A stretch of DNA of 64,000 nt from Candidatus Giovannonibacteria bacterium (GTDB lineage Bacteria; Patescibacteriota; Minisyncoccia; UBA11713; 2-01-FULL-45-33): contig JACOXN010000005.1 in assembly GCA_016176295.1 (NCBI GenBank), forward strand, positions 2,156 through 66,155, read 5' to 3'. Shown here piece after piece: positions 6,311 through 19,168 of the stretch. Made by a program: the position numbers and the translations under genes. Under the pieces are notes generated by a model that was given only the letters and a program-made list of their open reading frames with translations, did not search any database and had not been told where the DNA came from. How positions within the stretch are numbered: position 1 is the stretch's first letter; every line of letters starts with the position of its first letter.

Positions 6311-6333
6311 AATTCGGCTTATAGGCAGAGAAC
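6311..6333 (+). repeat. Direct repeat copy 2 of the rnpB 3' end (orphan)
   Basis: Exact copy of 5611-5633. Upstream identity stops at the base before AATTC, and downstream identity stops after GAAC. Confidence 0.95.
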
Positions 6334-6334
6334 C

Positions 6335-6369
6335 ACAAAACCTGTCGCCATCTGGCGGATAGGTTTTGT
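6335..6369 (+). terminator. Strong hairpin after repeat copy 2 (probable original rnpB terminator)
   Basis: ACAAAACCT (6335-6343) pairs with AGGTTTTGT (6361-6369). An inner CGCC/GGCG stem is also present. Confidence 0.55.
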
Positions 6370-6391
6370 TAGGTTATGATATAGTATTGAA

Positions 6392-7714
6392 ATGTCGGAA
6401 AAACCCAAATTTGAGTATTCACAAAGCAAAAGCCCAGAAAATCGAGAAAAAACATATGGAGATTTGCAATCGAGAATGGAAGAATTTGTCGATCCGAAAA
6501 AAGCAGAATTAAAAGATATTACTGAAACGCACTGGTATATCCCAAGAAAGATTGATATTGAAAGATTGTGCAAAATAGCCGAACTATCTCAAAAAAATAG
6601 TGATGGCAACAATAAGCAGATTAAAATTCTTGATTTGGGAGGCGGAAAGGGTTTCTTATCAAAATTGATGGCAGACAGCATAAGCGAAAAAAACAGAGAA
6701 GGGATGGTTGTCGACCTTGATTTGGACCAAGAAACACTTCAAAATGCCGCAAAATTTTATAAAAAAACGCAAAACTTACATTTTGTAGCAAGTAATTCAG
6801 AATATGAGGCGGTTAATGTTTTTAATAAAAAATTTGATCTAATAATTAATTCATGGTCATATCCCAAAGAAGAGTATGGCGGACCTGATTATTCTTCGAC
6901 GATCAAAAAACTTAAACCGGCATATTTTGTAAATATTAGCGAAGAACGCCAGGATGATACGGCAGCATTTGATGCCGGCGAAGATTACATCAAAATCGGA
7001 GAATGGTCGGGACTGGATACGATGGAGGTTGTAACCGGCAATTTAGCACACATAGATAGTTATTATTCAGACAAAAGAAGGAAATTATTAAAACAAAACG
7101 GCAGTAATCTTTTTGAAATTTATGTAAGAAAAGACATCGGTGGTGATGAGCAGGATAAATTGCGGAAAGAGCTAGGCAGCGTACAAGTGAAGAAGAAATA
7201 CAAATGGGAAAGAACGCTTGAGAAGCTCTATCCCAATATTTCACCCGTTAATTTCGATAAAGAATCTTTTTTGCAAGAAGGACAACCAGAGGAAGACATA
7301 ATCAAAAAGATCGGCAGGCGGGTCGAAACTTCCAGAATCGGGAACACACTCATAGACGTCGAGGCTTTGAACAAATTTGCTGAAAATTTGCCGATTGAAA
7401 CTGTGTCGGTTGATTCACTTAAAGATTATGTGAGCGAAGGTAATACTTATTGGGCCGCTGAGGACAGTAGTAAATTAGGGCCTTACCAAATTTTACAAGA
7501 TTGGGAAGCTGCACAAAAAAATCCGCTTTGGGCAAAACATATAGAGAGCATAAAAAATGCCAATCTTGATAATCCAATCTGGATCTCACCCGACGGAATT
7601 GTTTTCGACGGCATGCACCGTCTTACCCGCGCGTTCATTGACGGTGCCAAAGAAATAAAAGTTCGCCGATTTAAAGAAATCCCCAAAGAGGCGATTATTG
7701 AGGAAGCTAAGTAG
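6392..7714 (+). CDS. Fusion protein: class I SAM-dependent methyltransferase (N-terminal) plus ParB/sulfiredoxin-like domain (C-terminal)
   Basis: Motif I is ILDLGGGKGF, with an acidic beta-2 end VVDLD and motif IV-like DLIINSW. The C-terminus PIETVSVDSL...HIESIKNANLDNPIWISPDGIVFDGMHRLTRAFIDGAKEIKVRRF carries the ParB-N-like DGxHR signature. Confidence 0.7.
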   Translation: MSEKPKFEYSQSKSPENREKTYGDLQSRMEEFVDPKKAELKDITETHWYIPRKIDIERLCKIAELSQKNSDGNNKQIKILDLGGGKGFLSKLMADSISEKNREGMVVDLDLDQETLQNAAKFYKKTQNLHFVASNSEYEAVNVFNKKFDLIINSWSYPKEEYGGPDYSSTIKKLKPAYFVNISEERQDDTAAFDAGEDYIKIGEWSGLDTMEVVTGNLAHIDSYYSDKRRKLLKQNGSNLFEIYVRKDIGGDEQDKLRKELGSVQVKKKYKWERTLEKLYPNISPVNFDKESFLQEGQPEEDIIKKIGRRVETSRIGNTLIDVEALNKFAENLPIETVSVDSLKDYVSEGNTYWAAEDSSKLGPYQILQDWEAAQKNPLWAKHIESIKNANLDNPIWISPDGIVFDGMHRLTRAFIDGAKEIKVRRFKEIPKEAIIEEAK

Positions 7715-7743
7715 CTCAACTTAGCGACCAGGTCGCCAAGTGG

Positions 7744-7962
7744 TCAATCCTCCAAAACTTTTACAATAAGTTTTTTTGTCGGTTTGGGCTGACCCATTTT
7801 TTTCATAAGGACTCCCACTTGTTCCAAAGTATATATTCTATAATTATTTATCGGATGGCGGGACGCGGCGAATTTCCCTGTTTTATCCCAGTTTCGGAGC
7901 GTTAGTTCCGTTACTCCTATCAATTCGGCTGCCTGGCTTATTGTGAGATATTGTTTGCTCAT
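7744..7962 (-). CDS. Small MerR/excisionase-type HTH DNA-binding protein
   Basis: 72 aa. LTISQAAELIGVTELTLRNWDKTGKFAASRHPINNYRIYTLEQV matches the MerR-type HTH pattern. It is convergent with the MTase-ParB gene. Confidence 0.7.
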   Translation of the reverse strand: MSKQYLTISQAAELIGVTELTLRNWDKTGKFAASRHPINNYRIYTLEQVGVLMKKMGQPKPTKKLIVKVLED

Positions 7963-8013
7963 TTTCTACAATAATATAGCATAGTTCAAAAGGTTAGGCT
8001 ATTATGAACTTAC

Positions 8014-8607
8014 ATGAATATCAGGAAATACGGCGCAATTTTAGGAGTGGCAGCGGCGCTTCTTTTGGTTTCCGGAGTCTGGTTTTTTGCCGGCAAAAAA
8101 GGTGAAAATTTCTCTCCGCGCCTTAATCTGGCTTCTTTCTTCTCATCAATAGTAGACTCGGGTGAGGATAGCGTGTCCGTTGAATCGCCGATAAAAGAGG
8201 AAGGCAGCCATTTCTCATACACCCATCCCGTTTACAAATATTCTTTTTTTTACCCCAAAGGTTTTATCGCCTCGCCCATGAAATATTCTGAAGATTCGGA
8301 AACGCTGGTGGTGGAAAAAGGCGATAGGCAGGGATTCCAGATATTCGCGGCGCCTTTTGAGGAAGAAAACGCCCTCACGGCGGAGAGGATAGCCCAAGAC
8401 CTCCCTGACCTTGTCATGAAAAATGCCGTAAAGGTTACTTTCGGCGGGAATAATATCCAGGGTGTGGCTTTTTCGAGCCATGATGAAGAAGTTGGGGACA
8501 CTTACGAAGTGTGGTTTACCTACGGAGGGAATTTGTACCAGGTGATGGCGTACAAGGAATTTGAAAAAGGATTGCAGGATATTTTGGCAACGTTTAAATT
8601 TGAATGA
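8014..8607 (+). CDS. Hypothetical membrane-anchored/secreted protein
   Basis: 197 aa with an N-terminal TM/signal segment (AILGVAAALLLVSGVWFFAG). No recognisable motif. Its last codons overlap a remnant of a NYN-gene 3' tail (see findings). Confidence 0.6.
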   Translation: MNIRKYGAILGVAAALLLVSGVWFFAGKKGENFSPRLNLASFFSSIVDSGEDSVSVESPIKEEGSHFSYTHPVYKYSFFYPKGFIASPMKYSEDSETLVVEKGDRQGFQIFAAPFEEENALTAERIAQDLPDLVMKNAVKVTFGGNNIQGVAFSSHDEEVGDTYEVWFTYGGNLYQVMAYKEFEKGLQDILATFKFE

Positions 8608-8651
8608 CCAAAAAGGTTATTTTACAAAAAAAAAAGAAAAAGCCCAATAAA

Positions 8652-8662
8652 CATGTCAAGTC
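8652..8662 (+). repeat. CATGTCAAGTC junction 11-mer, copy 1
   Basis: The same 11-mer occurs at 9200-9210 and 9960-9970, each time upstream of a LamG-gene 5' region. Confidence 0.8.
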
Positions 8663-8688
8663 GGGCCTAGTGGTTTTTTGGAGCTTCA

Positions 8689-9120
8689 ATGGAAAGAATA
8701 TGGCATAATGGAAATATGGAAAAAGATTTTCAAAATTGGCATAATAAAAAGTCTAATATTGATAAAATTGAGAAACGGCCGTTTTTTCACGAGCGGGAAA
8801 TTTGGTTTTGCTACCTGGGAGCAAATATCGGGTTTGAACAGGACGGAAGCGGAGAGGAGTTTTTAAGGCCGGTATTAATTGTCCGCAAGTTTAATAATGA
8901 GATTTTTTGGGGGATACCGCTTACTAAAGCCCATAAAAAACTTGCTAAAAAAGCGGAAAAATATTACTTTTCATTTTCGTTTATTTCTGATATAAAAAGT
9001 GCCGCAATTTTATCACAAATTAGATTGATAGACGCAAGGAGACTGAGTCGTCATATAGGTATTATGCCGGATGCCGAATTTATCAAGTTAATAGAAAAGC
9101 TCAAGGCGTTATTGCCGTGA
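8689..9120 (+). CDS. PemK/MazF-like toxin-fold protein
   Basis: EREIWFCYLGANIGFEQDGSGEEFLRPVLIVRKF fits the MazF/PemK N-terminal pattern (Iw..dlg...G.Eq.G..RPvlv). The alternative start ATG at 8716 is preceded by CATAAT plus 6 nt. Confidence 0.7.
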   Translation: MERIWHNGNMEKDFQNWHNKKSNIDKIEKRPFFHEREIWFCYLGANIGFEQDGSGEEFLRPVLIVRKFNNEIFWGIPLTKAHKKLAKKAEKYYFSFSFISDIKSAAILSQIRLIDARRLSRHIGIMPDAEFIKLIEKLKALLP

Positions 9121-9199
9121 GCTTTTCTCGTTTTTCCCCTGCCTTGCGGCAGAGTCGGGCCGAAGCCATTTGTCACTCCATTATAGCAAAACCACAAAC

Positions 9200-9210
9200 C
9201 ATGTCAAGTC
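9200..9210 (+). repeat. CATGTCAAGTC junction 11-mer, copy 2
   Basis: It is embedded in an approximately 45-bp block shared with 9940-9990 (TTATA.CA...AAACCATGTCAAGTC.AATTGTGAATAACA). Confidence 0.8.
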
Positions 9211-9215
9211 AAATT

Positions 9216-9362
9216 GTGAATAACAGATTAAGCCAAAATTTAATGCTCAAAATTTCACATTTTGCGTTGGCATTTTCTATTTTGATTTTTGTATTTTCCA
9301 TTTTTCCCGCAAAATCGGTCCATATCGGCTATTGGAGTTTTGATTGGAAAAATGCGGTATAA
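9216..9362 (+). pseudogene. Truncated 5' copy of a LamG-domain gene (start, signal peptide and GYWSFD motif only)
   Basis: VNNRLSQNLMLKISHFALAFSILIFVFSIFPAKSVHIGYWSFDWKNAV* parallels the N-terminus of the intact gene (MNNKLIQLPLFSLVFFVILF...GLVGYWSFDGSDMAV). It forms part of track ORF 9117..9362. Confidence 0.75.
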
Positions 9363-9385
9363 TAAGCATAAGGCATAATAAAGGA

Positions 9386-9928
9386 ATGAAAAATAAATCA
9401 AATAACTTTGTTTATATTGACGGCGCCAACTTGTACAAAGGCTTGGAAAGCTCAGGCTGGGCGATGGATTACGGGAGATTTAGGGTGTGGTTAACTGAAA
9501 AATACGGAATTAAGCATGCATATATTTTTATCGGGCTCATACCAAAATACAAAGATCTTTACAAATATTTACAGGAATCGGGTTTTACTTTGGTTTTCAA
9601 AGAAGTAATTTACGATGGAAACGGAAAACCAAAAGGAAATTGCGACGCCGATCTGGTTCTACAGGCTGCGTGCGATGCGTATGAAAATAAATTTGAAAAA
9701 GCGATTGTAGTTTCAAGCGATGGGGACTATGCTGGTTTGATAAAATTTCTTAGCGAACGCGGAAAATTGGAAATAATTTTATCGCCACACGCAAAAAATC
9801 TCTGCTCGATTCTTCTCAAAAGAACTGGCGCGCCGATCGCTTACTTGAATGATCAAAAGATTATTTTACAAAGCCAAAAAGAAAAAGCCCCCGGTGCGGA
9901 CGGAACCGCACAAGGGTCTTTCTCGTAA
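9386..9928 (+). CDS. NYN-domain (LabA-like) putative RNase
   Basis: NFVYIDGANLY, CDADLVLQA and IVVSSDGDYAGLIKFL match the NYN/LabA acidic motifs. The ATG at 9386 (MKNKSNNF) is preferred over the track start at 9344. Confidence 0.8.
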   Translation: MKNKSNNFVYIDGANLYKGLESSGWAMDYGRFRVWLTEKYGIKHAYIFIGLIPKYKDLYKYLQESGFTLVFKEVIYDGNGKPKGNCDADLVLQAACDAYENKFEKAIVVSSDGDYAGLIKFLSERGKLEIILSPHAKNLCSILLKRTGAPIAYLNDQKIILQSQKEKAPGADGTAQGSFS

Positions 9929-9959
9929 GTATTGCCTTTATTATACACCCCCCAAAAAC

Positions 9960-9970
9960 CATGTCAAGTC
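9960..9970 (+). repeat. CATGTCAAGTC junction 11-mer, copy 3
   Basis: It lies upstream of the intact LamG gene. It is followed by a 19-bp tandem duplication, TCGAATTGTGAATAACAAA x2 (9969-9987 and 9988-10006), that duplicates the GTG start. Confidence 0.85.
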
Positions 9971-9994
9971 GAATTGTGAATAACAAATCGAATT

Positions 9995-12031
9995 GTGAAT
10001 AACAAATTAATCCAGCTTCCGCTTTTTTCTTTGGTATTTTTTGTAATTCTTTTTCTAAATCCGCAAAAAGCGGAAGCCGACATAATTTTCAAAGTTCCCC
10101 CCAGCCTCGGCCTTATCTCCGGCCTCGTCGGCTATTGGTCTTTCGATGGCTCCGACATGGCCGTAAACACCGCCTTCGATCGCTCGGGGCAGGGAAACAA
10201 CGGCACCCTCACCGGAGGTCCTTCCCGCATCGAAGGCAAACTCGGTCAGGCGCTCTCTTTTGATGGGGTGGATGATTATGTGAGTTTTGGTGGCGGGGCA
10301 GGGACAGTTGCTTATGTTCAATCAAAAGATGCCAGAAACGCAGCTCAAGCAACTACCATAGCTGTAACATTCACTAGCGCCACAGTTTCGGGCAATGCTA
10401 TAGTCGGAGCCGTAACATGGGGTTGCGCTTTCGCCGATTTAACTTCGGTTACAGACAATAAAGGAAATTCATACACTCTAAAAACCAGGGCTGAAGACGC
10501 AGGCAACACACAATCAATTCAAGCTTTTTATGCAAAAAATATTACCGGCGGTGCTACTCATACCATCACCGCCAATATTAACGGAAGCTGCTCTTTTAGA
10601 GCCATTGCAGTTCATGAAGTAAGCGGGGTTGACACAACCGCTCCGGATGATGGCAGCAATCAGCAATTTCAAAGCGCTCCGGGGACAGGCACTAACGCGC
10701 TGACATCAGGTTCATTTACGACCAGCGCCAACGGCGATTATATTTTTAGCGCCACACAAGATACTAGTGCCAACACCGCATCCCATACCGCCGGTACAAC
10801 CATTAGCTATACGCGCGTTACAAATGGTTCATCGGCAGATGTGGATTTTGCTTCAGAATGGGGGACTCAAACAACAGCCGGCTCTGTGGCGGGGACTTGG
10901 ACAAGCAATGAGAATAACGGTCATGTAACTGCGGCGATAGGATTGAAACCCGCGGCGGGCGCCGGCCCCAGTTTAAGCACAAACAGTATTTCCTTCTGGA
11001 TGAAAGCTGCGACCAGCACGACGCAAAGCATAATTGATTTGAACGGCACCGCCACCATCACGGAATCGAGCGGCACCCTCTCCGCAAATAACTTCACAAG
11101 CCCGACTATTTATGTGGACGGAGTGTCGGGCGGGACGGCAAATGACACGAATTGGCATCATGTTGTGGTAACGACGAATTCGGCTATAACGGCGAATGCG
11201 ATTACTATCGGCAAAGCCAGCGGAAGTGTTTTCGGAGGCCGCATCGACGATATCCGCATCTACAACCGCGCCCTCTCTTCCGACGAAATCAAACGCCTCT
11301 ACCGCGTCGGGGCGACTTTGCATGTGAATACAAAAATAAATAATGATTCGCTTGCAAAAGGCCTTGTGGGCTGGTGGAGTTTCGACGGGCCCGACATGGC
11401 GATTAACACCGCTCTCGACCGCTCCGGCCAAGGAAACAACGGCACCCTCACCAACGGCCCCACTCGCACCATCGGCAAACTCGGCCAGGCTTTGAGTTTT
11501 GATGGGACATCATCGGGTGGAGGGAATGATGTTGTAGACCTTGGTGCGACAGCGATTTTAACGGGAAGAGAAAGCGCTTGGGCCATCTGCAGCTGGGTAA
11601 AGATCGATTCTATTCCGCCAACCAGTGGGTCATATATGATTTATAACAGGCGAACGGACAGCGGCGGAGGAGGAAATTTCTCTTTTTATGTGGGAGACTG
11701 GACACTAAGTGATCGACGATGGGCGGTAAGCACAAACAATGGCGCATGGACCGATATGTTCGCTTCATCGCTGATGCCTATTGGAGAGTGGACCTATTTG
11801 TGCGCAACTAGTAATGGTTCTAATATATTTTTTTACTTCAATGGGAGTCCGGACGGGTCTCAAACATATGTGTTGCCGTCAAATGTGGCCAATCTAAGGC
11901 AAACCCTCGGTGCTTTTTGGAACAGTGGCGTGCCAGATGATGTGTTGGACGGCATCATCGACGATGTCCGCGTCTACAACAGGGCGCTTTCCGCAGACGA
12001 AATCAAAAGGCTATATAATTTGGGGAGGTAG
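9995..12031 (+). CDS. Secreted LamG/concanavalin-A-like lectin-fold protein with two LamG modules
   Basis: GTG start with an N-terminal signal/TM segment. Two homologous modules are present: GLVGYWSFDGSDMAVNTAFDRSGQGNNGTLTGGPSRIEGKLGQALSFDG...IDDIRIYNRALSSDEIKRLYRVG and GLVGWWSFDGPDMAINTALDRSGQGNNGTLTNGPTRTIGKLGQALSFDG...IDDVRVYNRALSADEIKRLYNLGR. Confidence 0.85.
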   Translation: MNNKLIQLPLFSLVFFVILFLNPQKAEADIIFKVPPSLGLISGLVGYWSFDGSDMAVNTAFDRSGQGNNGTLTGGPSRIEGKLGQALSFDGVDDYVSFGGGAGTVAYVQSKDARNAAQATTIAVTFTSATVSGNAIVGAVTWGCAFADLTSVTDNKGNSYTLKTRAEDAGNTQSIQAFYAKNITGGATHTITANINGSCSFRAIAVHEVSGVDTTAPDDGSNQQFQSAPGTGTNALTSGSFTTSANGDYIFSATQDTSANTASHTAGTTISYTRVTNGSSADVDFASEWGTQTTAGSVAGTWTSNENNGHVTAAIGLKPAAGAGPSLSTNSISFWMKAATSTTQSIIDLNGTATITESSGTLSANNFTSPTIYVDGVSGGTANDTNWHHVVVTTNSAITANAITIGKASGSVFGGRIDDIRIYNRALSSDEIKRLYRVGATLHVNTKINNDSLAKGLVGWWSFDGPDMAINTALDRSGQGNNGTLTNGPTRTIGKLGQALSFDGTSSGGGNDVVDLGATAILTGRESAWAICSWVKIDSIPPTSGSYMIYNRRTDSGGGGNFSFYVGDWTLSDRRWAVSTNNGAWTDMFASSLMPIGEWTYLCATSNGSNIFFYFNGSPDGSQTYVLPSNVANLRQTLGAFWNSGVPDDVLDGIIDDVRVYNRALSADEIKRLYNLGR

Positions 12032-12063
12032 ATTTTTAGGACAAAATATGCTATAATTGGCGC

Positions 12064-12336
12064 ATGAACAAACCAACCGCGCCGATTAGAAAGCAAAAGT
12101 TACCCGTTTCGTTTAAACGGCTTTTGTGGTCGTACGATTTCAATGCTATTGATGCGGAGCAATATAAAAGAACTATAATAGTAAATGTAGTTAATTACGG
12201 CAATCTCTCGGAATGGCGTTGGATTAAAAAACATTACGGCCGCCTAGAAATAAAAAAAATATTACATGAAATAAAGCCTACGGAGATCAGGAACGGTGCC
12301 CGGAAATTAGCCTCTCTTATTTTAGCCGCAAATTAA
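12064..12336 (+). CDS. Small hypothetical protein, probable partner of the downstream AbiEii-like nucleotidyltransferase
   Basis: 90 aa. The LLWSYDFNAIDAEQYKRTIIVNVVNYGNLSEWRWIKKHYG pattern is one I have seen upstream of DUF1814-type genes. It ends 9 nt before the next gene. TATAAT (12052-12057) lies 6 nt before the ATG. Confidence 0.5.
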   Translation: MNKPTAPIRKQKLPVSFKRLLWSYDFNAIDAEQYKRTIIVNVVNYGNLSEWRWIKKHYGRLEIKKILHEIKPTEIRNGARKLASLILAAN

Positions 12337-12345
12337 GATTTATAT

Positions 12346-12963
12346 ATGCATTCAGAGGCACTTACCAAAGAAGGCGCGAAAGTTTTCAAGAAACTCAAAG
12401 CAATAAAGGGTTTTTATTTAGCCGGCGGTACAGCCCTGGCATTGCAAATCGGGCACCGGATATCCGTTGATTTTGATTTGTTCTCAAATAAAAAAATCAA
12501 AAAAACGCTTTTATCGCAAATAGAGAAATTACTTGCAGGCGATAAAATTGAAATCTCGGTTAATAACAGTGATGAACTCACTTTATTTATAAATGGCGTT
12601 AAGGTTACTTTTTTGCATTATCCGTTTCCTGTGCTTAAACCTTTTATCAAACACGACTCATTTCCTTTACTCAGCGTCGAGGAAATTGCCGCAACCAAGG
12701 CATATACTATCGGCCGGCGCGGATCCTACAAAGATTATGTAGACATTTTTTTTGTTTTAAGCGGCAAATATACGAATTTAGAAGATGTGTTAAGTTTTGC
12801 CAATCGTAAATACGGCGATGCGTTTAATGGGCGGCTTTTTTTGGAACAATTGGCGTATTGGGGCGATATTAAAGACGAAAAAATAGTGTTTTTGGGCAAA
12901 GAGACAGGCCTTCAAGCGGTAAAACAATTTTTTGAAAAAACAATAAAAACCATTAAACTGTAA
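12346..12963 (+). CDS. Nucleotidyltransferase AbiEii/AbiGii toxin family (DUF1814-like), short form
   Basis: FYLAGGTALALQIGHRISVDFDLF is the characteristic N-terminal NTase motif of this family. Confidence 0.75.
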   Translation: MHSEALTKEGAKVFKKLKAIKGFYLAGGTALALQIGHRISVDFDLFSNKKIKKTLLSQIEKLLAGDKIEISVNNSDELTLFINGVKVTFLHYPFPVLKPFIKHDSFPLLSVEEIAATKAYTIGRRGSYKDYVDIFFVLSGKYTNLEDVLSFANRKYGDAFNGRLFLEQLAYWGDIKDEKIVFLGKETGLQAVKQFFEKTIKTIKL

Positions 12964-13081
12964 AATCATCGCTGATGTCGAGGGATTAAAAGGCTTTACA
13001 ATTAGTACAGGTAGATTTGACTTTGTTGCCGATTCATATAAAATAAGGAGTATATTCCTATTATTTAATTTTTATTAAAAT

Positions 13082-13643
13082 ATGCTTATTATAAAGCGTT
13101 ATTTGGGAGAAAAGATTTCAAAAAATCTTGGAAAGAAGAAAATCCTGATCATTTATGGGGCAAGGCAAGTGGGTAAGACCACACTGGTCAAAGATTTCTT
13201 ATATGAGCTATTTGGATATTTTGGAAAAACTTTGTATTATTTTCCCCTTAAAGCCATTTTTTTCAAATAAAAGAAAATCAATTTCTAAGCTGAGGAAGTA
13301 TTATTTTTATGATCTTGGCGTAAGGAATGCCGTCGTTGACGACTTTACTCCCATAGAAAGCCGAAAGGACTCCGGGGCTTTGTGGGAGAATTTTTGTATT
13401 GTGGAAAGAATGAAGCGCAACGATACTGCCGGCCGCTTAGCCAATTATTATTTTTGGCGTTCTTACCAGAGGGAGGAAATTGATATGATTGAGGTTGAAA
13501 ATGAAAACATATACGGTTTTGAGTTTAAGCGGGAAATGCAATCGTTAGATAAAAAAATAAAAGAAATTTATACGCAAGATTTGGCAGGGAAGGGTGATTT
13601 GGAAGTGATTTCCTCTGAAAATTTTCGTAACTTTGTAACATGA
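13082..13643 (+). pseudogene. Decayed AAA+ ATPase (AAA_14/DUF4143 type): internally deleted and frameshifted
   Basis: The N-terminal fragment carries Walker A (ILIIYGARQVGKTTLVKDFL; ORF 13082..13270). The C-terminal DUF4143-like fragment (KYYFYDLGVRNAVV...YYFWRSYQREEIDMI; ORF 13155..13643) is in another frame. The ATPase core between them is missing. Confidence 0.75.
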
Positions 13644-13688
13644 TTTTCGGCGGCGGAAATCAAACGGCTTTACAATTTGGGACGCTAA
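13644..13688 (+). pseudogene. Orphan 3' stub of a LamG-domain gene
   Basis: TTTTCGGCGGCGGAAATCAAACGGCTTTACAATTTGGGACGCTAA translates to FSAAEIKRLYNLGR*. The intact gene ends LSADEIKRLYNLGR*. Confidence 0.8.
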
Positions 13689-13744
13689 TATGTTGCGCTC
13701 TTCGTATCAATATGATACGATAAACCTATCTAAATGATACGAAT

Positions 13745-14800
13745 ATGCTTAAGATAAACCAAAAGGAACAAAGAATTATCGAGCTTTTCCTTAAAAAAGG
13801 CAAAATGTCGTCGTCCACGGCGTATAGTGAATTGGCCGGTTTAGGAGAAGAAATTTCCCTTGTAACAGTCAAGCGAATTTTATCCAAAATGGCGGTGAAA
13901 AGCCTTCTGAAGGTGCATGGGTCGGGGCGGGCGACTTCATACGACATCTCGACGCTGGGAAGAATGTTTGCAGATATCGTAGCCCGGGATTATTGCGCCA
14001 CAGAACCAGACAGGAGGTATGGCATGAGCAGTTTTAATTTTGAGTTTTTCCCCACATTGCCCGGAGAGATATTTGCGGATAAAGATTTAAAAACTTTGAA
14101 CAGCGCAACCCTGGAATACAAAAGAAAAACCACGAATTTGCCCAGGACCATCCAAAAAAAAGAATTGGAACGACTTATCATTGAACTCTCATGGAAGTCA
14201 TCGAAAATTGAAGGCAACACCTATACTCTTTTGGATACGGAAAAATTGATCTTAGAAAACAAAGAGGCTCCGGGCCACGATAAAAAAGAGGCTATTATGA
14301 TCTTGAACCATAAAGATGCGTTTAATTTTATTCATAAGAATAAAGCATTATTTAAAACGTTCAACCGCGCCAATCTGGAAAAATTGCACGCAATTTTAGT
14401 TAAAAATTTAAGCGTAGGTTTGGGTTTTCGGAAAAGGCTTGTCGGCGTTGTCGGGTCAAAATACAGGCCACTTGATAATATCCATCAAATTGAGGAAGCG
14501 GCTAGCCAGCTTTTCCTGGCGGTGGCGCGCGTAGAATCGATTTACGCCAAAGCGCTAATCGCTCTATTGGGTATTAGCTATATCCAGCCTTTTGAAGACG
14601 GCAATAAGCGTACATCAAGGTTGATGGCTAATGCCTTGCTTTTTGCGCATGGATTGGCTCCGCTTTCTTACAGAAGCGTGGAAGAAAAAGAATATCGCGA
14701 AGCAACTTTGGTATTTTATGAATTAAACTCAATCGTGCCGTTAAGAAATATTTTCGTGGATCAATATAATTTTGCAGCGAATAACTATGTTGTAAAGTAA
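13745..14800 (+). CDS. Fic/DOC-family protein with N-terminal wHTH, alpha-inh motif and a degenerate active-site motif
   Basis: Inhibitory-helix motif SSKIEGN ((S/T)xxxE(G/N)). The Fic-motif position reads QPFEDGNKRTSR (14585-14620) instead of HxFx(D/E)GNGRxxR. Confidence 0.8.
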   Translation: MLKINQKEQRIIELFLKKGKMSSSTAYSELAGLGEEISLVTVKRILSKMAVKSLLKVHGSGRATSYDISTLGRMFADIVARDYCATEPDRRYGMSSFNFEFFPTLPGEIFADKDLKTLNSATLEYKRKTTNLPRTIQKKELERLIIELSWKSSKIEGNTYTLLDTEKLILENKEAPGHDKKEAIMILNHKDAFNFIHKNKALFKTFNRANLEKLHAILVKNLSVGLGFRKRLVGVVGSKYRPLDNIHQIEEAASQLFLAVARVESIYAKALIALLGISYIQPFEDGNKRTSRLMANALLFAHGLAPLSYRSVEEKEYREATLVFYELNSIVPLRNIFVDQYNFAANNYVVK

Positions 14801-14822
14801 TACTGTCTATTCAAATAATTTT

Positions 14823-15002
14823 TATATCGGAGCATGGGATAATGGCACCGGTGTGGTAAACGGCACAATTGACGAGGCTAGAATCTACCCTCCTACGCCA
14901 AGCCTGCCTGTCGCCTGCCTGCCGGTAGGCAGGGCTACGGAAGGGCAAGCACCCGCGCGCTGTCGGTGGGATGAAATTAAGAGGCTATATAGTTTGGGGC
15001 GC
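14823..15002 (+). pseudogene. Orphan 3' portion of a LamG-domain gene, interrupted by a 62-bp palindromic insertion
   Basis: YIGAWDNGTGVVNGTIDEARIY[insert]DEIKRLYSLGR aligns to LGAFWNSGVPDDVLDGIIDDVRVYNRALSADEIKRLYNLGR of the intact gene. The stop codon is lost, so the track ORF 14853..17468 reads through it. Confidence 0.8.
14889..14950. repeat. Small palindromic insertion element (core CCTGCCTGCCGGTAGGCAGG, 14914-14933)
   Basis: It interrupts the conserved ...RIY | NRALS.DEIKRLY coding stub. The core recurs, reverse-complemented with 1 mismatch, at 62715-62734. Confidence 0.65.
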
Positions 15003-15050
15003 TGCTGTGTTACAATATCTCTATTAACTTATCAGCGTAATTTATCACAA

Positions 15051-17468
15051 ATGTTTATTTTTAATATTTTAAAAGGATTAGCAGGAAGTTTGTCTTGGAG
15101 GATGGAAGCCTCGGTTTTTTCCGAAGATGATGCGGTTTCTGATGAACCAACCGTCTTTTATAAACTTTCCCAATGGTGCATTCTCGCCGTGGCGTTTCTC
15201 TTGCCGGTGTGGTTCCTGCCACTCACCATTTCGCCTCTGATGTTCAACAAGGCGCTTCTCGTCTCGGTGCTGGTGATCCTTGCGTTTTTACTTTTTATCG
15301 TCCACGCGGTAATGCGCGGCGGAATAAAAACCGGAAAACATTGGATATTTTGGGCGGGTTTCGCAGTTGTGTTACTTTGGCTTGCCTCGGCTTTGACGAC
15401 CTCACAGAGCGGCTTCAGTATTTGGGGTTTGGGCGCGGAAACTTCCACGCTTTTTTCGCTGATTATCTTTTTGGTTTTGGCTTGGCTCGTGTCCGCGCTT
15501 TTTGCGGAGCCTGCGGCTTTGGGGCGACTGCTTATGTTTTCCGCTACCGGTTTGGGAATTTTTGTAGTGCTCTCGCTGCTTTCGGTTTTGGGAGCCTTGC
15601 AGTGGCTGGGCGGGCCGCTTACTCAGCGAACTTTCAGCACCATGGGTTCCTGGAACGGAGCGGGAATTGCCGCCGGTCTTTTTGCGGTGATGCTTTATCC
15701 TTTTATTCTGGCTGCTTCCGGTTTTTGGCGCTGGGTCGTGTACGCGTTGTTCGGGCTTTCGATGCTTTTAATGTTGATGGTGAATTTTTCACTTGCCTGG
15801 CTGATCCTCGGGCTTTTCGCTCTGCTTATACTTTGCTATGGGGTTTGGAGCGGCACTTTGCGGGGCGCTGCGATGGTGACGGTGGTTTTGTTGCTCGCTT
15901 TTTCTCTTTTGGGTTATTTCTTTGAAAAACCAATAGCGAACACCGTCGAAGCTTTGGGCGTAGTTCCGCCTTTGGAAGTTGGTGTTAACCATCCGACGAC
16001 TTTCGGCATAATAAAAAGCACTCTTTCCAAAGACATGTTTTTGGGCAACGGTCCGGCAACTTTCGGCTATCTTTGGGACCAGGAAAAGCCGGTCGCTGTT
16101 AACCAAACGCCTTTTTGGGGCGTGCGGTTCGCATCCGGTTCGTCTTATTTCCTGACATTACTGGCCGAGCTTGGGGTTCTCGGTTGGCTCGTTTTTATGA
16201 CGTTCGTTTTGGGGCTTTGGTATCTTAGTTTGCGCGCAGTCACTTCGCACGCGGCCTCGGAGTATGGGCTCTTGGTGCTGGCGCCGTTCCTGCTTCTTTC
16301 CTATACCGTATTTATGTGGGCTCTTTATCCGATCAATTTTGCATTGGCGGCCTTAGGATTTTTGTTCCTGGGGATCGCTCTCGCGGCGCTTCGCGCCTCC
16401 GGGCTGATGAAGTCCAGGAGCTTTACGCTCTTTAGCGAGGGGACCCGTGGGTTCGTTTCGGCAATATTCATCGTGATATTCGTGATAGCGAGCTTGGGTG
16501 GTCTGTACGTTACCGTTACCCGTTACATGGGCCAGCTTGCGTATTCGAAGGGAATCGAGATATTCAACGAGTCCGGAGATTTGAATGCCACGGAACAGAA
16601 ATTGCTTTCGGCCGTCAAATTTGATTCACAAAACGACCTTTATTACAGAACTCTTTCAGATGTTTATCTTTTAAGAGCGAGGCTTCTTCTGCAAAACCAG
16701 CAGACGACGGCGGACCTTCTGGCATCGCAATTCAAGGATGTTTTGGATGCTTCCCTGGCGGCGGCTCAAAACGCGGAGAAAGTTTCACCAATGGACTTCC
16801 TGAATTTCGAGTCGATGGGCAAGATCTACGAATTCCTGGTGCCTTTAGGGACGGAGGGAGCGGCCGAAGCGGCGCTGGCCCAGTATGACCTCGCGATAAA
16901 ATTGGCGCCGGTAAATCCAGCGCTTCTGCGCGACAAAGCCCTGGTTTATTTCGGACGCTACGGCATTTCTCAAAAGAAGGACGACTTGAAACAGGCCGAA
17001 GCGCTGCTGGTCAAATCCACGGAGCTTAAGCCGGATTATGCGGCGGCCCATTATCTTCTGGCACAGGTATTGGTGGCTGAAGGCAATGAAAAGGATGCTA
17101 TCGCGAGAAGTGAAGCGGCGGCGTTACTTGCCCCCAACGATATAGGCGCGCTCTTCCAGCTTGGTCTTCTTTACTACCGCAATCAAAGATATGCCGATTC
17201 GGAAGCGGTCTTCACCCGCGCGGTCACACTGAACGATAATTATGCGAATGCCCGCTACTTCCTTGGATTAATCTATGATAAAAACGGCAACAAGCAGCGC
17301 GCCATCGAAGAATTCAAGAAAGTGGCGGCTTTGAACCCCTCTAACGAAGAAGTGAAAAAGATCCTTGTGAACCTGCAGGGCGGCAAAAGCGCTCTCGCCG
17401 GCATATCTCCCCCTTCGCAGCTTCCGGAAAAGAGAATAGAACCACCGGTAAAGGAACAGGGAAACTGA
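15051..17468 (+). CDS. Polytopic membrane protein (O-antigen ligase/Wzy-like) with C-terminal TPR repeats
   Basis: More than 10 hydrophobic segments are followed by TPR-like repeats (AHYLLAQVLVAEGNEKDAI..., ARYFLGLIYDKNGNKQRAIEEFKKVAALNP). The start at 15051 (MFIFNILKG) was chosen because upstream codons are LamG-stub sequence. A TACAAT box lies upstream. Confidence 0.7.
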   Translation: MFIFNILKGLAGSLSWRMEASVFSEDDAVSDEPTVFYKLSQWCILAVAFLLPVWFLPLTISPLMFNKALLVSVLVILAFLLFIVHAVMRGGIKTGKHWIFWAGFAVVLLWLASALTTSQSGFSIWGLGAETSTLFSLIIFLVLAWLVSALFAEPAALGRLLMFSATGLGIFVVLSLLSVLGALQWLGGPLTQRTFSTMGSWNGAGIAAGLFAVMLYPFILAASGFWRWVVYALFGLSMLLMLMVNFSLAWLILGLFALLILCYGVWSGTLRGAAMVTVVLLLAFSLLGYFFEKPIANTVEALGVVPPLEVGVNHPTTFGIIKSTLSKDMFLGNGPATFGYLWDQEKPVAVNQTPFWGVRFASGSSYFLTLLAELGVLGWLVFMTFVLGLWYLSLRAVTSHAASEYGLLVLAPFLLLSYTVFMWALYPINFALAALGFLFLGIALAALRASGLMKSRSFTLFSEGTRGFVSAIFIVIFVIASLGGLYVTVTRYMGQLAYSKGIEIFNESGDLNATEQKLLSAVKFDSQNDLYYRTLSDVYLLRARLLLQNQQTTADLLASQFKDVLDASLAAAQNAEKVSPMDFLNFESMGKIYEFLVPLGTEGAAEAALAQYDLAIKLAPVNPALLRDKALVYFGRYGISQKKDDLKQAEALLVKSTELKPDYAAAHYLLAQVLVAEGNEKDAIARSEAAALLAPNDIGALFQLGLLYYRNQRYADSEAVFTRAVTLNDNYANARYFLGLIYDKNGNKQRAIEEFKKVAALNPSNEEVKKILVNLQGGKSALAGISPPSQLPEKRIEPPVKEQGN

Positions 17469-17470
17469 GG

Positions 17471-19168
17471 ATGCGACTATTTCCGGTGAGGCTCCCCAAA
17501 ATATTTCATGTGGATATTTCCAACGTCCACCACGCCGCTTTTTGGCTGTCCATTTTCGCCCTTATTTCGGGGATATTGGGACTTTTCCGAGACCGGCTGT
17601 TGGCGGGGATGTTTGGAGCTTCGAGGTCGCTTGACCTTTACTATGCCGCGTTCCGAGTGCCTGATTTTGTTTACACAATGATGCTTTTTTTTGCCGCTTC
17701 CACGGCAATCATCCCGATCTTTTTGTCCGTAAAAAAAGATTCGGGAGAGGATGGAAAAAGCGGAGACCTTCTTGGTTCATTGATATTATTTTTCGGGCTT
17801 TTGGTTTCGCTCTCAAGCTTGCTCGTTTTTTTCCTTATGCCGAAATTTGCTTCGTTCCTTTTCCCCGGGTTTACCCCCGACGAGCAGGGGACGGTTATAC
17901 TGCTTTCCCGGGTTCTCCTGCTGTCGCCGATATTTTTGGGGCTTTCAAATATATTATCCAGCGTTACCCAGACCTTCGGCAGGTTTTTTGTATACGCTTT
18001 AAGCCCCGTAGTTTATAATCTGGGGATAATCATAGGCGTATTATTTTTATATCCTTTGATGGGGTTTCAAGGATTGGGCTGGGGGGTAGTATTGGGAACT
18101 TTTTTGCATATGGCGGTACAGGTGCCTTCGGTGATAAAGATAGGCGTGAGGCCAAGTTTTAAAAATTTGTGGAGCCGCGAGCTTAAAAAGGTAATTGCCT
18201 TGTCGGTACCGCGGACCCTGGGCCTTGCCACTACGCAGATTTCTCTTACGGTTTTTACTTCCATCGCATCGGTTTTCGCGCAAGGCTCGATATCCGTTTT
18301 CAATTTCGCGACCAATCTGGAGTATCTTCCAGTGACTTTAATAGGACTTTCCTACAGCGTGGCCGTATTTCCGCGCCTCGCCGCGCTCTCCATATCTAAA
18401 GCGAAAGACGGTTTTAAAGAAAATTTTTCCGTGGCTTTCCGGCATATTGTTTTTTGGGCGCTTCCCAGCGCCGTCCTCATTTTGGTTCTGCGCGCGCAGA
18501 TAGTGCGCGTCATCCTTGGAAGCGGGAAGTTCAGCTGGGCGGATACGCGGCTTACGGCAGCGGTTCTTTCTTTGCTGGCTTTTGCGGTGGTACTGCAAAG
18601 TCTTTTTATGCTTCTGGTGCGTGCTTTTTACGCTGAAGGAGAAACCTATAAGCCGCTTATCGTAAATATTATTTCCGCCTTTCTTTCCGCCGGAAGCGCT
18701 TTTTGGCTTTCAAAAATAATTTTACCGGGAAGCGCGCCCGCGGATTTTTTGGGGAGTTTGCTTCGGATATCGGATATTTCGGATATCCGGGTCATAGCGC
18801 TTCCTTTGGGAGTATTGATAGGAAATATTTTTAATCTCGTTTTTCTTTTTCTTTTATTTAAAAAAGTTTTCGGTTGGTATCCGGATGACGGGTCAAGGCC
18901 GTCTTTTTTACAGGTTCTTTCCGCGTCGCTTATTTCCGGGGTTACCGCATACGCGTCCCTCGCCTTTTTTACGAATTTTTTCGACCTTGATACGTTTCCG
19001 GGTATTTTCATGCAGGGTCTTTTTTCGGGTCTGCTGGGTCTCGTCGCCTTGATATTCGCTTTGTGGGCCTTGGGCAACCGCGAGCTGTTTGAACTGCATG
19101 CGAGCCTTGTCAGCAAATTCTCCCGGAAGGAGCAAGTACCTGCCCCGGAGCCGGAAAAACTTCCTTAA
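17471..19168 (+). CDS. murJ: Lipid II flippase MurJ/MviN
   Basis: RDRLLAGMFGASRSLDLYYAAFRVPDFVYTMML is the conserved MurJ N-terminus. About 14 TM segments. Confidence 0.88.
   Translation: MRLFPVRLPKIFHVDISNVHHAAFWLSIFALISGILGLFRDRLLAGMFGASRSLDLYYAAFRVPDFVYTMMLFFAASTAIIPIFLSVKKDSGEDGKSGDLLGSLILFFGLLVSLSSLLVFFLMPKFASFLFPGFTPDEQGTVILLSRVLLLSPIFLGLSNILSSVTQTFGRFFVYALSPVVYNLGIIIGVLFLYPLMGFQGLGWGVVLGTFLHMAVQVPSVIKIGVRPSFKNLWSRELKKVIALSVPRTLGLATTQISLTVFTSIASVFAQGSISVFNFATNLEYLPVTLIGLSYSVAVFPRLAALSISKAKDGFKENFSVAFRHIVFWALPSAVLILVLRAQIVRVILGSGKFSWADTRLTAAVLSLLAFAVVLQSLFMLLVRAFYAEGETYKPLIVNIISAFLSAGSAFWLSKIILPGSAPADFLGSLLRISDISDIRVIALPLGVLIGNIFNLVFLFLLFKKVFGWYPDDGSRPSFLQVLSASLISGVTAYASLAFFTNFFDLDTFPGIFMQGLFSGLLGLVALIFALWALGNRELFELHASLVSKFSRKEQVPAPEPEKLP

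Follow-up and report, generated by a model that had tools for sequence, protein, structure and literature searches.

The stretch of DNA analysed in this work (64 kb, hereafter the window) carries a gene for a LamG surface protein, together with fragments of LamG gene starts and ends and a set of small accessory genes. The host of the locus is an ultra-small groundwater bacterium. The features are listed below; related loci are designated by L numbers, and profile positions refer to a nucleotide profile of LamG gene ends.

8600-8645, +: relic duplicate of the NYN gene's 3' end (cf. 9845-9890), immediately before 5' stub 1 (direct repeat D5, ~74-87% identity)
8658-8708, +: LamG 5' stub 1, GLVVFWSFNGKNMA and stop / KSGLVVFWSFNGKNMA and stop; LamG domain-start motif, without signal peptide
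8689-9120, +: cargo, PemK/MazF-like toxin gene without an adjacent antitoxin gene (Pfam PF02452, 2.6e-8)
9192-9362, +: LamG 5' stub 2 (repeat D3), with start region, signal-peptide-like segment, GYWSFD and ..VHIGYWSFDWKNAV followed by two stops
9386-9928, +: cargo, NYN-domain gene (Pfam PF01936, 1.1e-14; gene call from L001)
9995-12031, +: intact LamG surface-protein gene with two LamG repeats (HYT01_01190, Candidatus Giovannonibacteria; Laminin_G_3 in Pfam, 5e-29)
11941-12031, +: conserved terminal block of LamG, ..IIDDVRVYNRALSADEIKRLYNLGR and stop, the recombination site by comparison with strain L003
12064-12963, +: cargo of cassette 1, DUF6922 (12064-12336) and AbiEii nucleotidyltransferase toxin (12346-12963) (Pfam)
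13082-13643, +: decayed AAA_14/DUF4143 ATPase in two frames (Pfam)
13644-13688, +: orphan LamG 3' stub 1, FSAAEIKRLYNLGR and stop, 14 codons (profile positions 76-120)
13745-14800, +: cargo of cassette 2, HTH-Fic gene (Pfam PF02661)
14826-14888, +: orphan 3' stub 2, left part (..GTIDEARIY; ..YIGAWDNGTGVVNGTIDEARIY), ending exactly at the Y/N codon junction (profile positions 4-66)
14889-14950, +: small 62-nt repeat element at the Y/N junction, CCTCCTACGCC..GGGCAAGCA, with a nested GC hairpin (from the sequence)
14951-15003, +: orphan 3' stub 2, right part, RALSV, a +1 frameshift and DEIKRLYSLGR (profile positions 67-118)
15051-17468 and 17471-19168, +: right-hand conserved frame, an O-antigen-ligase-like/TPR membrane protein and then MurJ (Pfam)

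The intact LamG ORF ends in ...IDDVRVYNRALSADEIKRLYNLGR and a stop codon. In a six-frame motif scan, LamG start and end motifs were confined to this locus within the 64 kb and were all found on the + strand, and the LamG pieces have a nested layout (5', 5', gene, 3', 3'). The cargo is AT-rich (GC content 0.37-0.42), compared with 0.47-0.52 in LamG and the flanks. The broken ATPase consists of an N-terminal AAA_14 fragment (13082-13270) and a DUF4143 piece (13155-13643). When the main ORFs between 5.8 and 19.8 kb of the window were scanned with Pfam, the families detected were HicAB, methyltransferase, MerR, PemK, NYN, LamG, DUF6922, AbiEii, AAA/DUF4143, Fic, the TPR protein and MurJ; no recombinase was among the matches. 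The HicBA cassette of the window is bounded by a 28-nt repeat of the 3' end of RNase P RNA (rnpB).

This anatomy, which can be read directly from the DNA, agrees with the original prediction in the end of the intact gene at 12031, the cargo at 12064-13643, the short stub at 13644-13688 and the Fic gene at 13745-14800. The small protein, AbiEii-like nucleotidyltransferase and decayed ATPase that it proposed as cargo were identified as DUF6922, AbiEii and AAA_14/DUF4143, and the LamG 5' stubs that it placed upstream are real. Its longer 3' stub also exists but is not contiguous, as the 62-nt element is inserted in it.

A search for LamG / Laminin_G_3 proteins gave 1,865 homologues, and motifs were examined in an alignment of 12 of them. 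According to Pfam and to this alignment, the protein is made of a signal peptide and repeats that open with GLVGYWSFDG and close with IDDVRIYNRALSxDEIKRLY. The last ~50-95 nt of the gene (..FxGxIDDVRIYNRALSxDEIKRLYNLGR and stop) are conserved across the huge LamG family of the CPR.

Stub 1 differs from the LamG gene end of the window at 12 of 45 nt, and nine of the differences are synonymous. Because the changes are mostly synonymous, the stub is derived from another functional LamG end that has diverged, and a low-complexity match is excluded. Its identity to the LamG end of strain L003 is 95%. Stub 2 has lost its stop codon, so that its frame continues into the next gene. Its 62-nt element, whose overall fold is unexceptional (z = +0.43), is also found at the Y/N junction in L013 (three times) and in L088.

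Upstream of the intact gene, PemK and NYN are framed by two LamG 5' relics. The start region of 5' stub 2 is 92% identical to 9952-9988, and a motif similar to 5' stub 1 lies ~50 nt upstream of the PemK gene of L049. The PemK/MazF-like gene of the window shows 70% nucleotide identity to L028 933-1410.

Seventy-nine related genome loci and the window (80 sources) were scanned by HMM, and 25 orphan LamG 3' ends were detected in 12 sources. All 25 lie on the strand of the gene and downstream of an intact gene end, and 13 of 83 LamG genes (~16%) are followed by one or more of them. Arrays of LamG 3' ends are thus general, while 5' stubs are nearly unique to the window. The orphans are all 3'-terminal and ~120 nt or shorter, and several stubs are visibly decayed. 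The in-frame length upstream of terminal motifs is bimodal: less than 60 aa in 24 cases, 60-150 aa in none, and 500 aa or more in 89. None of the 25 listed intervals from gene end to stub or from stub to stub exceeds ~1.6 kb. Cargo genes are of standard toxin-antitoxin or abortive-infection families and start at codons of their own; at least four arrays include Y1_Tnp genes among their cargo, and no integrase was found among the array cargo genes scanned with Pfam. The array of the metagenome contig L088 is large: it packs 10 stubs into 6.5 kb and has one cassette in triplicate. 'Empty' units (stop, 7-10 nt, VRIY, hairpin, stub) with identical boundaries were detected at four loci of three genomes (among them L015, L036 and L049), and may represent a primordial state. 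Altogether, integron-like arrays without an integrase occur in several CPR lineages, and they appear to be so far undescribed.

Comparison of close relatives shows a recent exchange at the strain level. Sister strain L003 shows 0 mismatches to the window over 2,114 nt, up to window position 11991. Beyond that point, nine synonymous changes fall within the final 40 nt of LamG, and the cargo that follows is unrelated (RhuM-Fic/DOC). The first differences are seen at 11992, and the exchange boundary is placed at this position or further upstream; a sharp tract of recombination terminates within the final 55 nt of LamG. In L086, the RhuM-Fic/DOC cargo of L003 is followed by a new stub. Restoration of the target gene by an element-borne end, with the displaced end kept on the far side, is found in L003 and L086 compared with the window, and in L008 compared with L013.

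Cassettes are also shared and re-ordered between genomes: units of 0.3-1.6 kb recur in several of them, in different orders and positions. The LamG end, spacer and gene start of cassette 1 are shared with L021 12987-13103 (79%), and the DUF6922/AbiEii cassette lies at the gene end in the window and at an orphan stub in L021. The stub, spacer and Fic gene of the window are 85% identical to L088 1378-2531, and homology stops at the Fic stop codon. A VapBC cassette is found in both L007 and L013 (83%), HicB is common to L008 and L013, and an IS200-like gene is present in L008 and L013 (86%), with a left LamG segment that is the end of the live gene in L008 but orphaned in L013. What is shared besides the cargo varies. 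In L003, Fic and the 23S_rRNA_IVP copies the terminal segment is linked to the downstream cargo; in the HicBA cassette of L007/L013 it is the downstream stub that is shared; and in the IS200-like cassette homology begins only after the stop codon. The order in L029 (Sungbacteria) is LamG, HicAB, stub, PemK, stub, O-antigen-ligase-like gene and MurJ. Window 15051-17468 and L029 3376-5904 are 31% identical over the full length (E = 3e-92), and the L029 gene also follows a LamG stub array.

These comparisons bear out the original prediction on several counts: the aligned 3' ends are diverged LamG termini with mostly synonymous changes, the same frame holds different cargo in relatives (sister strain L003/L086 and Sungbacteria L029), and the anticipated recombination tract was found. 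Neither of the outcomes that would have refuted it (stubs as chance matches, or full paralogs at these positions in relatives) was seen. Its reading of the locus as a cassette array is therefore supported.

Breakpoints are clustered. One cluster lies at profile positions 65-69 (at least 16 of ~37 stubs) and another at positions 48-55 (at least 10 stubs). In at least 16 stubs from many genomes the break is within ±2 nt of the Y/N junction (VRIY/NRAL), and two such breakpoints, L007 13123 and L008 6512, have no hairpin. In L088, copies 2 and 3 of the 23S_rRNA_IVP cassette become homologous exactly at this junction. Left boundaries at profile positions 4-37, 48-55, 76 and 90 or beyond are also common. 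Hairpins at the Y/N junction belong to at least three sequence families, always in the same orientation. Hairpin arms are ~20-fold enriched in arrays, also with fixed orientation; the hairpin motif GGGCAAGC is not enriched in the window (3 matches vs 2.45 expected).

Full-length relatives of the array hairpin repeats carry small GIY-YIG genes. A single-domain GIY-YIG protein of ~85-100 aa is encoded at L049 12360-12620 (PF01541, 1.2e-16), and the window has its own gene at 22858-23130 (PF01541, 7.6e-14), with a hairpin only upstream; six further candidates of 84-95 aa were picked by motif, without assignment to subfamily cd10448. GIY-YIG genes flanked by hairpins on both sides, along with dispersed copies lacking the ORF, are found in L032, L049, L040, L083 and L043, and the arms in L043 are the dRS3/NTS core ATTCCC..GGGAAT. 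Arms of GIY-YIG genes match hairpins inside stubs of L007, L015, L029, L049 and L086. IS200-like genes are each flanked by different hairpins of their own. Cleavage of single-stranded DNA beside hairpins of this type, and modulation of transformation, are known for Ssn-type GIY-YIG nucleases (PMC11893778), and Saccharibacteria, which are CPR members, are naturally competent (PMC10187176). The D/V and Y/N breakpoint junctions hold hairpin repeats related to those of small GIY-YIG (Ssn-type) nuclease genes; the enzyme responsible and its cleavage activity are inferred.

The explanation that we favor, with a probability of roughly 0.6, is that the stubs are displaced LamG gene ends, scars left by repeated insertion or exchange of small selfish-gene cassettes at the LamG 3' terminus. 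The conserved terminal block would act as portable homology: an incoming cassette (toxin-antitoxin, abortive-infection, Fic) would carry its own copy of the block, and a crossover inside it, probably after natural transformation and either as a single Campbell ('ends-in') event or as unequal exchange between arrays, would rebuild an intact LamG frame and push the old end downstream as an orphan. Repetition would yield the array (gene end, cargo, stub, cargo, stub), and later recombination from stub to stub might reshuffle, duplicate or delete cassettes. Because of selection for an intact LamG, only frame-restoring events would survive. RecA-type homologous recombination as the engine is an inference, and so is the idea that breaks at the two codon junctions (D/V and Y/N) seed the events. 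Several considerations weigh against this explanation: neither a recombination intermediate nor an enzyme activity has been observed, and the origin of the first stub is not explained by cassette exchange. Furthermore, sequence identity between the repeats of a single array is often no more than 73-85%, and uninterrupted matches extend over 9-33 nt; such repeats would be poor substrates for RecA unless the events are older or the partners were then closer.

Breakpoints as tightly clustered as these are better accounted for by a site-specific process than by plain homologous recombination. One cannot discard, as a possibility of lesser weight, a dedicated cassette system that is functionally like an integron, with a trans-acting nuclease or recombinase that cuts at hairpins situated at the VRIY/NRAL junction. 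The candidates are an Ssn-like GIY-YIG single-strand nuclease and an IS200-like Y1 (REP-associated, RAYT-type) transposase; the unit would extend between successive Y/N junctions, comprising a LamG end, the cargo and the left part of the following end, and would insert at the same junction of any LamG terminus. Breaks at the junction even without a hairpin, three or more hairpin families placed exactly there in constant orientation, the uniform 'empty' units, the Y1_Tnp cargo and the 23S_rRNA_IVP copies of L088 all agree with such a system. It is weakened by the lack of a recombinase consistently adjacent to arrays (none in window 5.8-19 kb), by the many stubs whose left boundary lies elsewhere, and by the differing hairpins of the IS200-like genes. 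In addition, the repeat is not conserved at synonymous positions and hence has no fixed core sequence, and strand-transferase activity is not known for Ssn enzymes, which have been described only as nucleases. More speculative, and somewhat more doubtful, is an unrecognized integron-like cassette platform of the CPR: a hairpin-guided single-strand nuclease or Y1 transposase would cut LamG at VRIY/NRAL, junction-to-junction cassettes would be captured by any LamG gene and would always rebuild it, and a coding end would serve defence and toxin-antitoxin genes as a co-opted, universal attachment site.

Tandem LamG genes interspersed with NYN and PemK genes in L049, the 5' relics of the window and the decay of several stubs might suggest that the stubs remain from full-length tandem paralogs, mostly deleted, with cargo merely filling the gaps. 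This is improbable given the bimodal remnant sizes and the exclusively 3'-terminal orphans; given also a nested layout in the window instead of the alternating one that tandem genes would leave, an L003 exchange confined to the last 40 nt of an otherwise identical gene, and cassettes that recur elsewhere with their adjoining stub in a different order. Neither full LamG genes at stub positions in close relatives nor a graded truncation series was found. We give slightly less credit to the view that larger elements with an integrase once targeted the LamG 3' end and reconstituted the gene via attP, as tRNA-targeting islands do, and that the stubs are what remains of them after the loss of all but addictive toxin-antitoxin genes and att scars. 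The gene-end-restoring logic is identical, the rnpB-end repeat around HicBA is a classical island target, and toxin-antitoxin genes resist loss; yet no listed interval exceeds ~1.6 kb, Pfam-scanned cargo never includes an integrase, the same 0.3-1.6 kb cassette units are found in several genomes, and the repeats lack an identical core. Chimeric assembly at a repeated LamG end is hardly tenable. The LamG end is admittedly a dispersed repeat, most data come from metagenome-assembled genomes, and L088 and L090 take different paths through a repeated cassette. However, a chimeric join through one shared repeat cannot yield short orphans without a gene body, and array-bearing assemblies come from many studies and assemblers. 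In addition, window 5358-9168, 9144-13197 and 13385-16557 were recovered at 99.9-100% identity in independent Logan assemblies of three other samples.

CPR/Patescibacteria have tiny genomes, in which classical mobile elements and defence systems are thought to be scarce. LamG arrays provide them with a simple and widespread route, with no integrase seen, for acquiring and shuffling accessory genes, and toxin-antitoxin, abortive-infection and Fic genes accumulate and turn over beside a variable surface-protein gene. Should a conserved gene end be a portable recombination site, it would be a hot spot of a new type, open to computational searches. Cutting of the LamG end by a hairpin-guided nuclease, if it occurs, would give the Ssn family a concrete biological role and the engineering of CPR bacteria a natural landing pad; some of these bacteria (Saccharibacteria) are naturally competent and genetically tractable.

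Several known systems resemble these arrays in part. Orphans of polymorphic toxins (CDI, Rhs, Maf) code for alternative toxic C-termini, accompanied by immunity genes, and can take the place of the tip of the main gene. They have in common with LamG stubs that they are pieces of the main gene, lie downstream of it on its strand and share a short homology block with it. The likeness drawn in the original prediction is nevertheless superficial: LamG stubs contain the conserved terminal 14-30 codons and no alternative functional module such as a C-terminal toxin domain with cognate immunity, and the cargo is made of unrelated, stand-alone genes with their own starts. A second parallel is found in tandem integrative elements at the 3' ends of tRNA, tmRNA, rnpB and protein genes, where attP reconstitutes the gene and displaced end fragments are attR. 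Here too the element supplies a replacement end, the old end remains downstream and serial events produce arrays of gene-end fragments; the rnpB-end repeat around HicBA is analogous. In contrast, LamG arrays show no integrase among the genes scanned with Pfam and no identical att core: cassettes are 0.3-1.6 kb, and repeats are variable in length and 73-95% identical, with short identical runs. The target belongs to a multi-copy paralogous family, so that every LamG gene is a possible site.

In integrons, attC is an imperfect palindrome (R''/L''..L'/R') at the end of every cassette. No such site was seen in LamG arrays (without use of a dedicated attC model): the repeat is the 3'-terminal coding block of a protein gene, aligns to the coding end, is not palindromic, varies at synonymous sites and is conserved at the protein level without a nucleotide core. 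The platform is a live gene end, rebuilt at every event, and no IntI-type tyrosine recombinase was found by Pfam next to LamG arrays (window 5.8-19.8 kb and scanned array cargo). The resemblance, above all to sedentary chromosomal integrons rich in toxin-antitoxin genes, lies in co-oriented tandem arrays of small cassettes, mostly with one or two genes, on a fixed platform with a repeated site per cassette, in a content and order that vary between relatives, and in toxin-antitoxin-rich cargo.

The intergenic mosaic and the minimal mobile elements of Neisseria are also relevant comparisons. LamG-array hairpins differ from the Neisseria repeats in lying inside orphan coding-end fragments, at defined codon junctions; the cassette flanks are copies of gene ends instead of whole conserved genes, and nuclease activity in the CPR is only inferred. 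Even so, the dRS3/NTS repeats and SsnA of Neisseria (Chenal et al. 2025, PMC11893778) share with LamG arrays the small single-domain GIY-YIG genes flanked by their own hairpin repeats, the miniature repeat copies clustered next to surface-protein genes, and the tie to natural transformation, with exchange of cassettes between conserved flanks.

The LamG locus examined here lies on a contig of Candidatus Giovannonibacteria (CPR/Parcubacteria), and its gene order can be summarized as follows:

Gene order around LamG in the window, from left to right (strand given where it is minus)
Leftmost, minus strand: M1 aminopeptidase gene
5093-5637: RNase P RNA
5840-6307: HicB/HicA, after the RNase P RNA
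Between HicB/HicA and the MerR-like gene: methyltransferase gene
After the methyltransferase gene, minus strand: MerR-like gene
Between the MerR-like gene and LamG 5' relic 1: gene for a 197-aa protein
8658-8708: LamG 5' relic 1
8689-9120: PemK
9192-9362: LamG 5' relic 2
9386-9928: NYN
9995-12031: intact two-repeat LamG gene
12064-13643: DUF6922, AbiEii and a broken AAA_14/DUF4143 ATPase
13644-13688: LamG 3' stub 1
13745-14800: Fic
14826-15003: LamG 3' stub 2
15051-17468: O-antigen-ligase-like/TPR gene, followed by MurJ and LepA

The LamG start and end motifs are found at this locus only and nowhere else in the 64 kb, and the cargo genes have a GC content of 0.37-0.42 versus 0.47-0.52 in LamG and the flanks. 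The original prediction held that orphan LamG ends bound the AbiEii/AAA and Fic genes, and its coordinates and translations were right on re-reading of the sequence. Stub 2 is real but interrupted: a 62-nt insert lies exactly between the ..RIY and (N)RAL codons, with a +1 frameshift and loss of the stop codon. Independent assemblies from three other samples reproduced the window structure at 99.9-100%, thus ruling out a chimeric contig. Database look-ups returned no record for the O-antigen-ligase-like protein, and nothing beyond window-identical contigs for MurJ, the 197-aa protein and Fic. At the LamG start, a 19-nt tandem duplication (GAATTGTGAATAACAAATC, two copies; 9952-10007) closes the reading frame that began at the ancestral ATG (MSSRIVNNK..) with a stop codon, so that the intact gene must now start at GTG 9995.

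Exchange of the array behind LamG was observed in a sister strain, represented by two contigs (L003 and L086). In L003, a contig from a different sample within the same study, the LamG protein is exactly that of the window (678 aa), and identity is complete over 2,114 nt. The last 40 nt of the gene carry nine synonymous differences from the window and match its stub 1 at 95% identity. Past the LamG stop codon the two sequences are unrelated, and a RhuM-Fic/DOC gene begins 7 nt downstream in L003. The far side is found in L086, where the RhuM-Fic stop codon is directly followed by a new stub that consists of (D)VRVY, a perfect hairpin of 27 nt (fold z = -4.4) and NRALSGDEIKRLYNLGR with a stop codon. 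Hence, within a single population, one LamG gene is followed by either of two wholly distinct arrays, and the exchange boundary is within the terminal conserved LamG block.

A LamG alignment, used to survey one representative genome for each species, yielded 79 loci. Orphan ends were sought with a profile of the C-terminal 24 LamG residues on all stop-to-stop segments of 80 sources, and the search returned 99 gene ends plus 25 strong orphans, the latter in 12 of the 80 sources. All 25 lie on the LamG strand, downstream of an intact gene end; among gene ends with enough downstream sequence, 13 of 83 are followed by at least one orphan. Genes between stubs include HicAB, VapBC/PIN, PemK, DUF6922-AbiEii, RhuM(-Fic) and 23S_rRNA_IVP four-helix-bundle genes, together with IS200-like Y1 transposase genes and one small GIY-YIG gene. 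The outer frame of the window (LamG, array, O-antigen-ligase-like gene, MurJ) is also present in a Sungbacteria locus (L029), whose ligase-like protein is 31% identical to that of the window over its full length (E = 3e-92) and whose array contains HicAB and PemK.

Various origins of the stubs other than insertion at the gene end were considered. The LamG family terminus is almost invariably IDDVRIYNRALSxDEIKRLYNLGR followed by the stop codon. Stub 1 and the live LamG end differ at 12 of 45 nt; of these changes, nine are synonymous and spread over eight codons, and the amino acid is altered in just two codons. Because its changes are mostly synonymous, stub 1 must have diverged within a LamG gene that was still functional. 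This signature of purifying selection and the identity of only 73% discard target-site duplication or recent duplication in situ in the window. Chance or low-complexity matches, already deemed unlikely in the original prediction, are likewise excluded by the mostly synonymous differences and by the restriction of the motifs to this locus. If stubs were the remains of decayed tandem LamG paralogs, random erosion would not give the bimodal lengths found: the in-frame stretch upstream of the terminal motif is below 60 aa in 24 cases, 60-150 aa in none, and at least 500 aa in 89. It was also considered whether ribosomes might read through the in-frame TGA that ends the DUF4143 gene and so translate stub 1, but no support was found. 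A different case is L051 (12080-12620), where two near-identical tandem LamG-end copies without cargo between them lie behind a live gene end, each with a 90-190-nt spacer carrying the hairpin CTCTCTAGGGGACCCCTAGAGAG; unlike the diverged stubs elsewhere, these are an in-situ duplication.

Another possibility is that the stub is part of a mobile unit formed by the cargo itself. When metagenomes were scanned with Fic of the window, 73 loci were returned, and only the closest homologues (L088-L091, 85-87% identical) and L122 adjoin LamG ends. As most Fic loci lack LamG ends, the association with LamG belongs to the arrays and not to Fic. HicAB, in turn, lies by rnpB in the window and by LamG stubs in L007, without common flanks. 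On both grounds, the idea of a stub as part of the cargo's mobile unit was rejected.

Cassettes are shared between arrays. A VapBC cassette of L007 (13146-13822) is also found in L013 (11615-12291; 83%), and the cassettes of these two loci are in different order. L008 and L013 have in common a HicB cassette and an IS200-like cassette (86%), the latter behind a live gene end in L008 and an orphan in L013. In L021, an orphan-led cassette matches the window from the LamG end through the spacer to the DUF6922 start, and counterparts of the window PemK and HicAB are found in L028 and L007, respectively. In the metagenome contig L088 (1-6528; Ga0209518_1005713), ten LamG stubs in 6.5 kb separate HicBA, three near-identical copies of 23S_rRNA_IVP (Avd-like four-helix-bundle), Fic, VapBC and RelE-like pairs. 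Its positions 1378-2531 are 85% identical to window 13647-14800, in a match that starts within the stub and stops at the Fic stop codon. The blocks of L088 appear in another order in L090, joined through the repeated 23S_rRNA_IVP cassette; the difference is either a structural variant or one of assembly path.

When stubs were aligned to a nucleotide profile of 80 LamG gene ends (stop codon at positions 118-120), discontinuities clustered at two places: positions 65-69, between the VRIY and NRAL codons (the Y|N junction; at least 16 of about 37 stubs), and positions 48-55 (the D|V junction; at least 10 stubs). Uninterrupted, long stubs start at positions 4-37, where family conservation sets in. 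Most Y|N cases have a small GC-rich hairpin at the junction; in two (L007 13123 and L008 6512) the stub begins there without one. Four "empty" units (one each in L015 and L036, two in L049) share this anatomy but have no cargo; they consist of the LamG stop, 7-10 nt, GTCCGCATCTAC, a hairpin and the remainder of the end.

The arms of the stub hairpins are the terminal inverted repeats found, in the same genome set, around small GIY-YIG genes (85-95 aa), and are enriched about 20-fold within arrays. Thus, GCTTGCCCCGTTAGAAA..TTTCTAACGGGGTGA flank the gene at L032 8232-8489 and ACCCTGTGAAA..TTTCACAGGGTAG that at L049 12360-12620. Elements of this kind (L032 8232-8489, L049 12327-12620, L040 2490-2744, L083 15218-15478 and L043 279-566) have a right arm that overlaps the last codons (..FLTG and stop). 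The hairpins within LamG stubs are ORF-less miniatures of the GIY-YIG elements. The tail GGGCAAGC occurs in arrays nine times in LamG sense orientation and never in the opposite one; enrichment of GGGCAAGC across the window itself was checked and is absent. The insert in stub 2 is a member of a second family of small repeats, CCTCCTTCGCC..GGGCAAGCA, which L013 and L088 also have at the Y|N junction. The window copy has a nested GC hairpin inside; as a whole, the insert is not a strong hairpin, as it folds no better than shuffled sequence (z = +0.43).

IS200-like Y1 genes carried as array cargo have their own perfect hairpins on either side, with a sequence that differs per genome (L049 15470-15510 and 16225-16262; L061 6972-7015 and 7785-7830; L013 9500-9530 and 10245-10270). 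REP-associated tyrosine transposases (RAYTs) are known to be flanked in this manner.

The arms in L043 are the Neisseria dRS3/NTS core ATTCCCGCGAAGGCGGGAAT, and the architecture of GIY-YIG gene plus hairpins is that of the Ssn family, although cleavage activity is only inferred. Ssn proteins are single-domain GIY-YIG nucleases with their own flanking hairpin repeats; they cut single-stranded DNA beside the repeat, cluster around surface-protein genes and, in Neisseria, modulate natural transformation (PMC11893778).

On the 5' side, the two window relics mirror the logic of the 3' stubs. Comparable relics are rare elsewhere: one was found in L049, also just upstream of a PemK gene. In relatives, PemK and NYN genes commonly lie just upstream of LamG genes. 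In L049, PemK genes are found twice 70-215 nt upstream, and in L061 (3664-5781) a PemK-like N-terminus (MEKDFDKWNEKKK..) is fused with a LamG gene in one 705-aa ORF. The minus strand of the window has two sigma-70 promoters that match the consensus perfectly (TTGACA, 16 nt, TATAAT; 9180-9207 and 9940-9967). They lie within a repeated segment behind PemK and NYN, point antisense into both and overlap the LamG start region; L028 has this promoter-like sequence behind PemK and NYN as well. Transcription from it might yield an antisense RNA that regulates toxin genes lacking an antitoxin gene.

Layouts that suggest restoration of gene parts were also seen away from LamG. The 28-nt end of rnpB (5611-5638) is repeated right after HicA (6311-6338; 27/28 identical), so that the HicBA cassette (5840-6307) has a live gene end on one side and an orphan copy of that end on the other, as at LamG but with rnpB as the gene. 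A HicBA pair in the LamG-stub array of L007 (14737-15169) is 76% identical to that of the window. Window 22745-22778 duplicates exactly 34 nt from the 5' half of tRNA-Gly(CCC), without mismatch and ending inside the anticodon, and the real gene lies downstream (23121-23192). Between them are a hairpin ending in GGGCAAGC (about 22815-22851) and a gene for a 90-aa GIY-YIG protein (22858-23130), the 3' end of which runs into the real tRNA gene. The whole segment (22745-23192) resembles an insertion in a tRNA gene that restored part of that gene.

Altogether, the LamG terminus is a hot spot of cassette insertion and exchange: the LamG frame is rebuilt at each event, the old end is left as a scar, and cassettes move between arrays and genomes. 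As to mechanism, we infer that the conserved terminal block acts as portable homology for incoming DNA that already has a LamG end. Integration would then occur by single crossover ("ends-in") or by unequal exchange between arrays, with outcomes filtered by selection for intact LamG. Such DNA could plausibly enter by natural transformation, a process documented for Saccharibacteria (PMC10187176). Breaks made by Ssn-type nucleases beside hairpins, or hairpin-dependent processes, may concentrate junctions at the two codon boundaries. The main weaknesses of this homology model are that many repeats have low identity, that the travelling side of the stub is unresolved and that the origin of the first stub is unexplained. 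A site-specific, integron-like mechanism is a serious rival, albeit one we consider less likely; an attC-like or dif-like conserved core was looked for in the stubs and not found.

No description of arrays delimited by LamG ends was found in the literature searched. We rate them as a cassette array or recombination hot spot, both known kinds, in a new form; that they are a dedicated new cassette platform seems improbable. Polymorphic-toxin orphan arrays are only superficially alike. Integron cassette arrays work in a similar way, but the LamG arrays lack IntI and attC, which are the defining tests. With islands at gene 3' ends they share the gene-restoring logic, but neither an integrase nor an identical core was found in LamG arrays. 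With the Neisseria NTS/Ssn system, they have in common both the hairpins and the small GIY-YIG genes.
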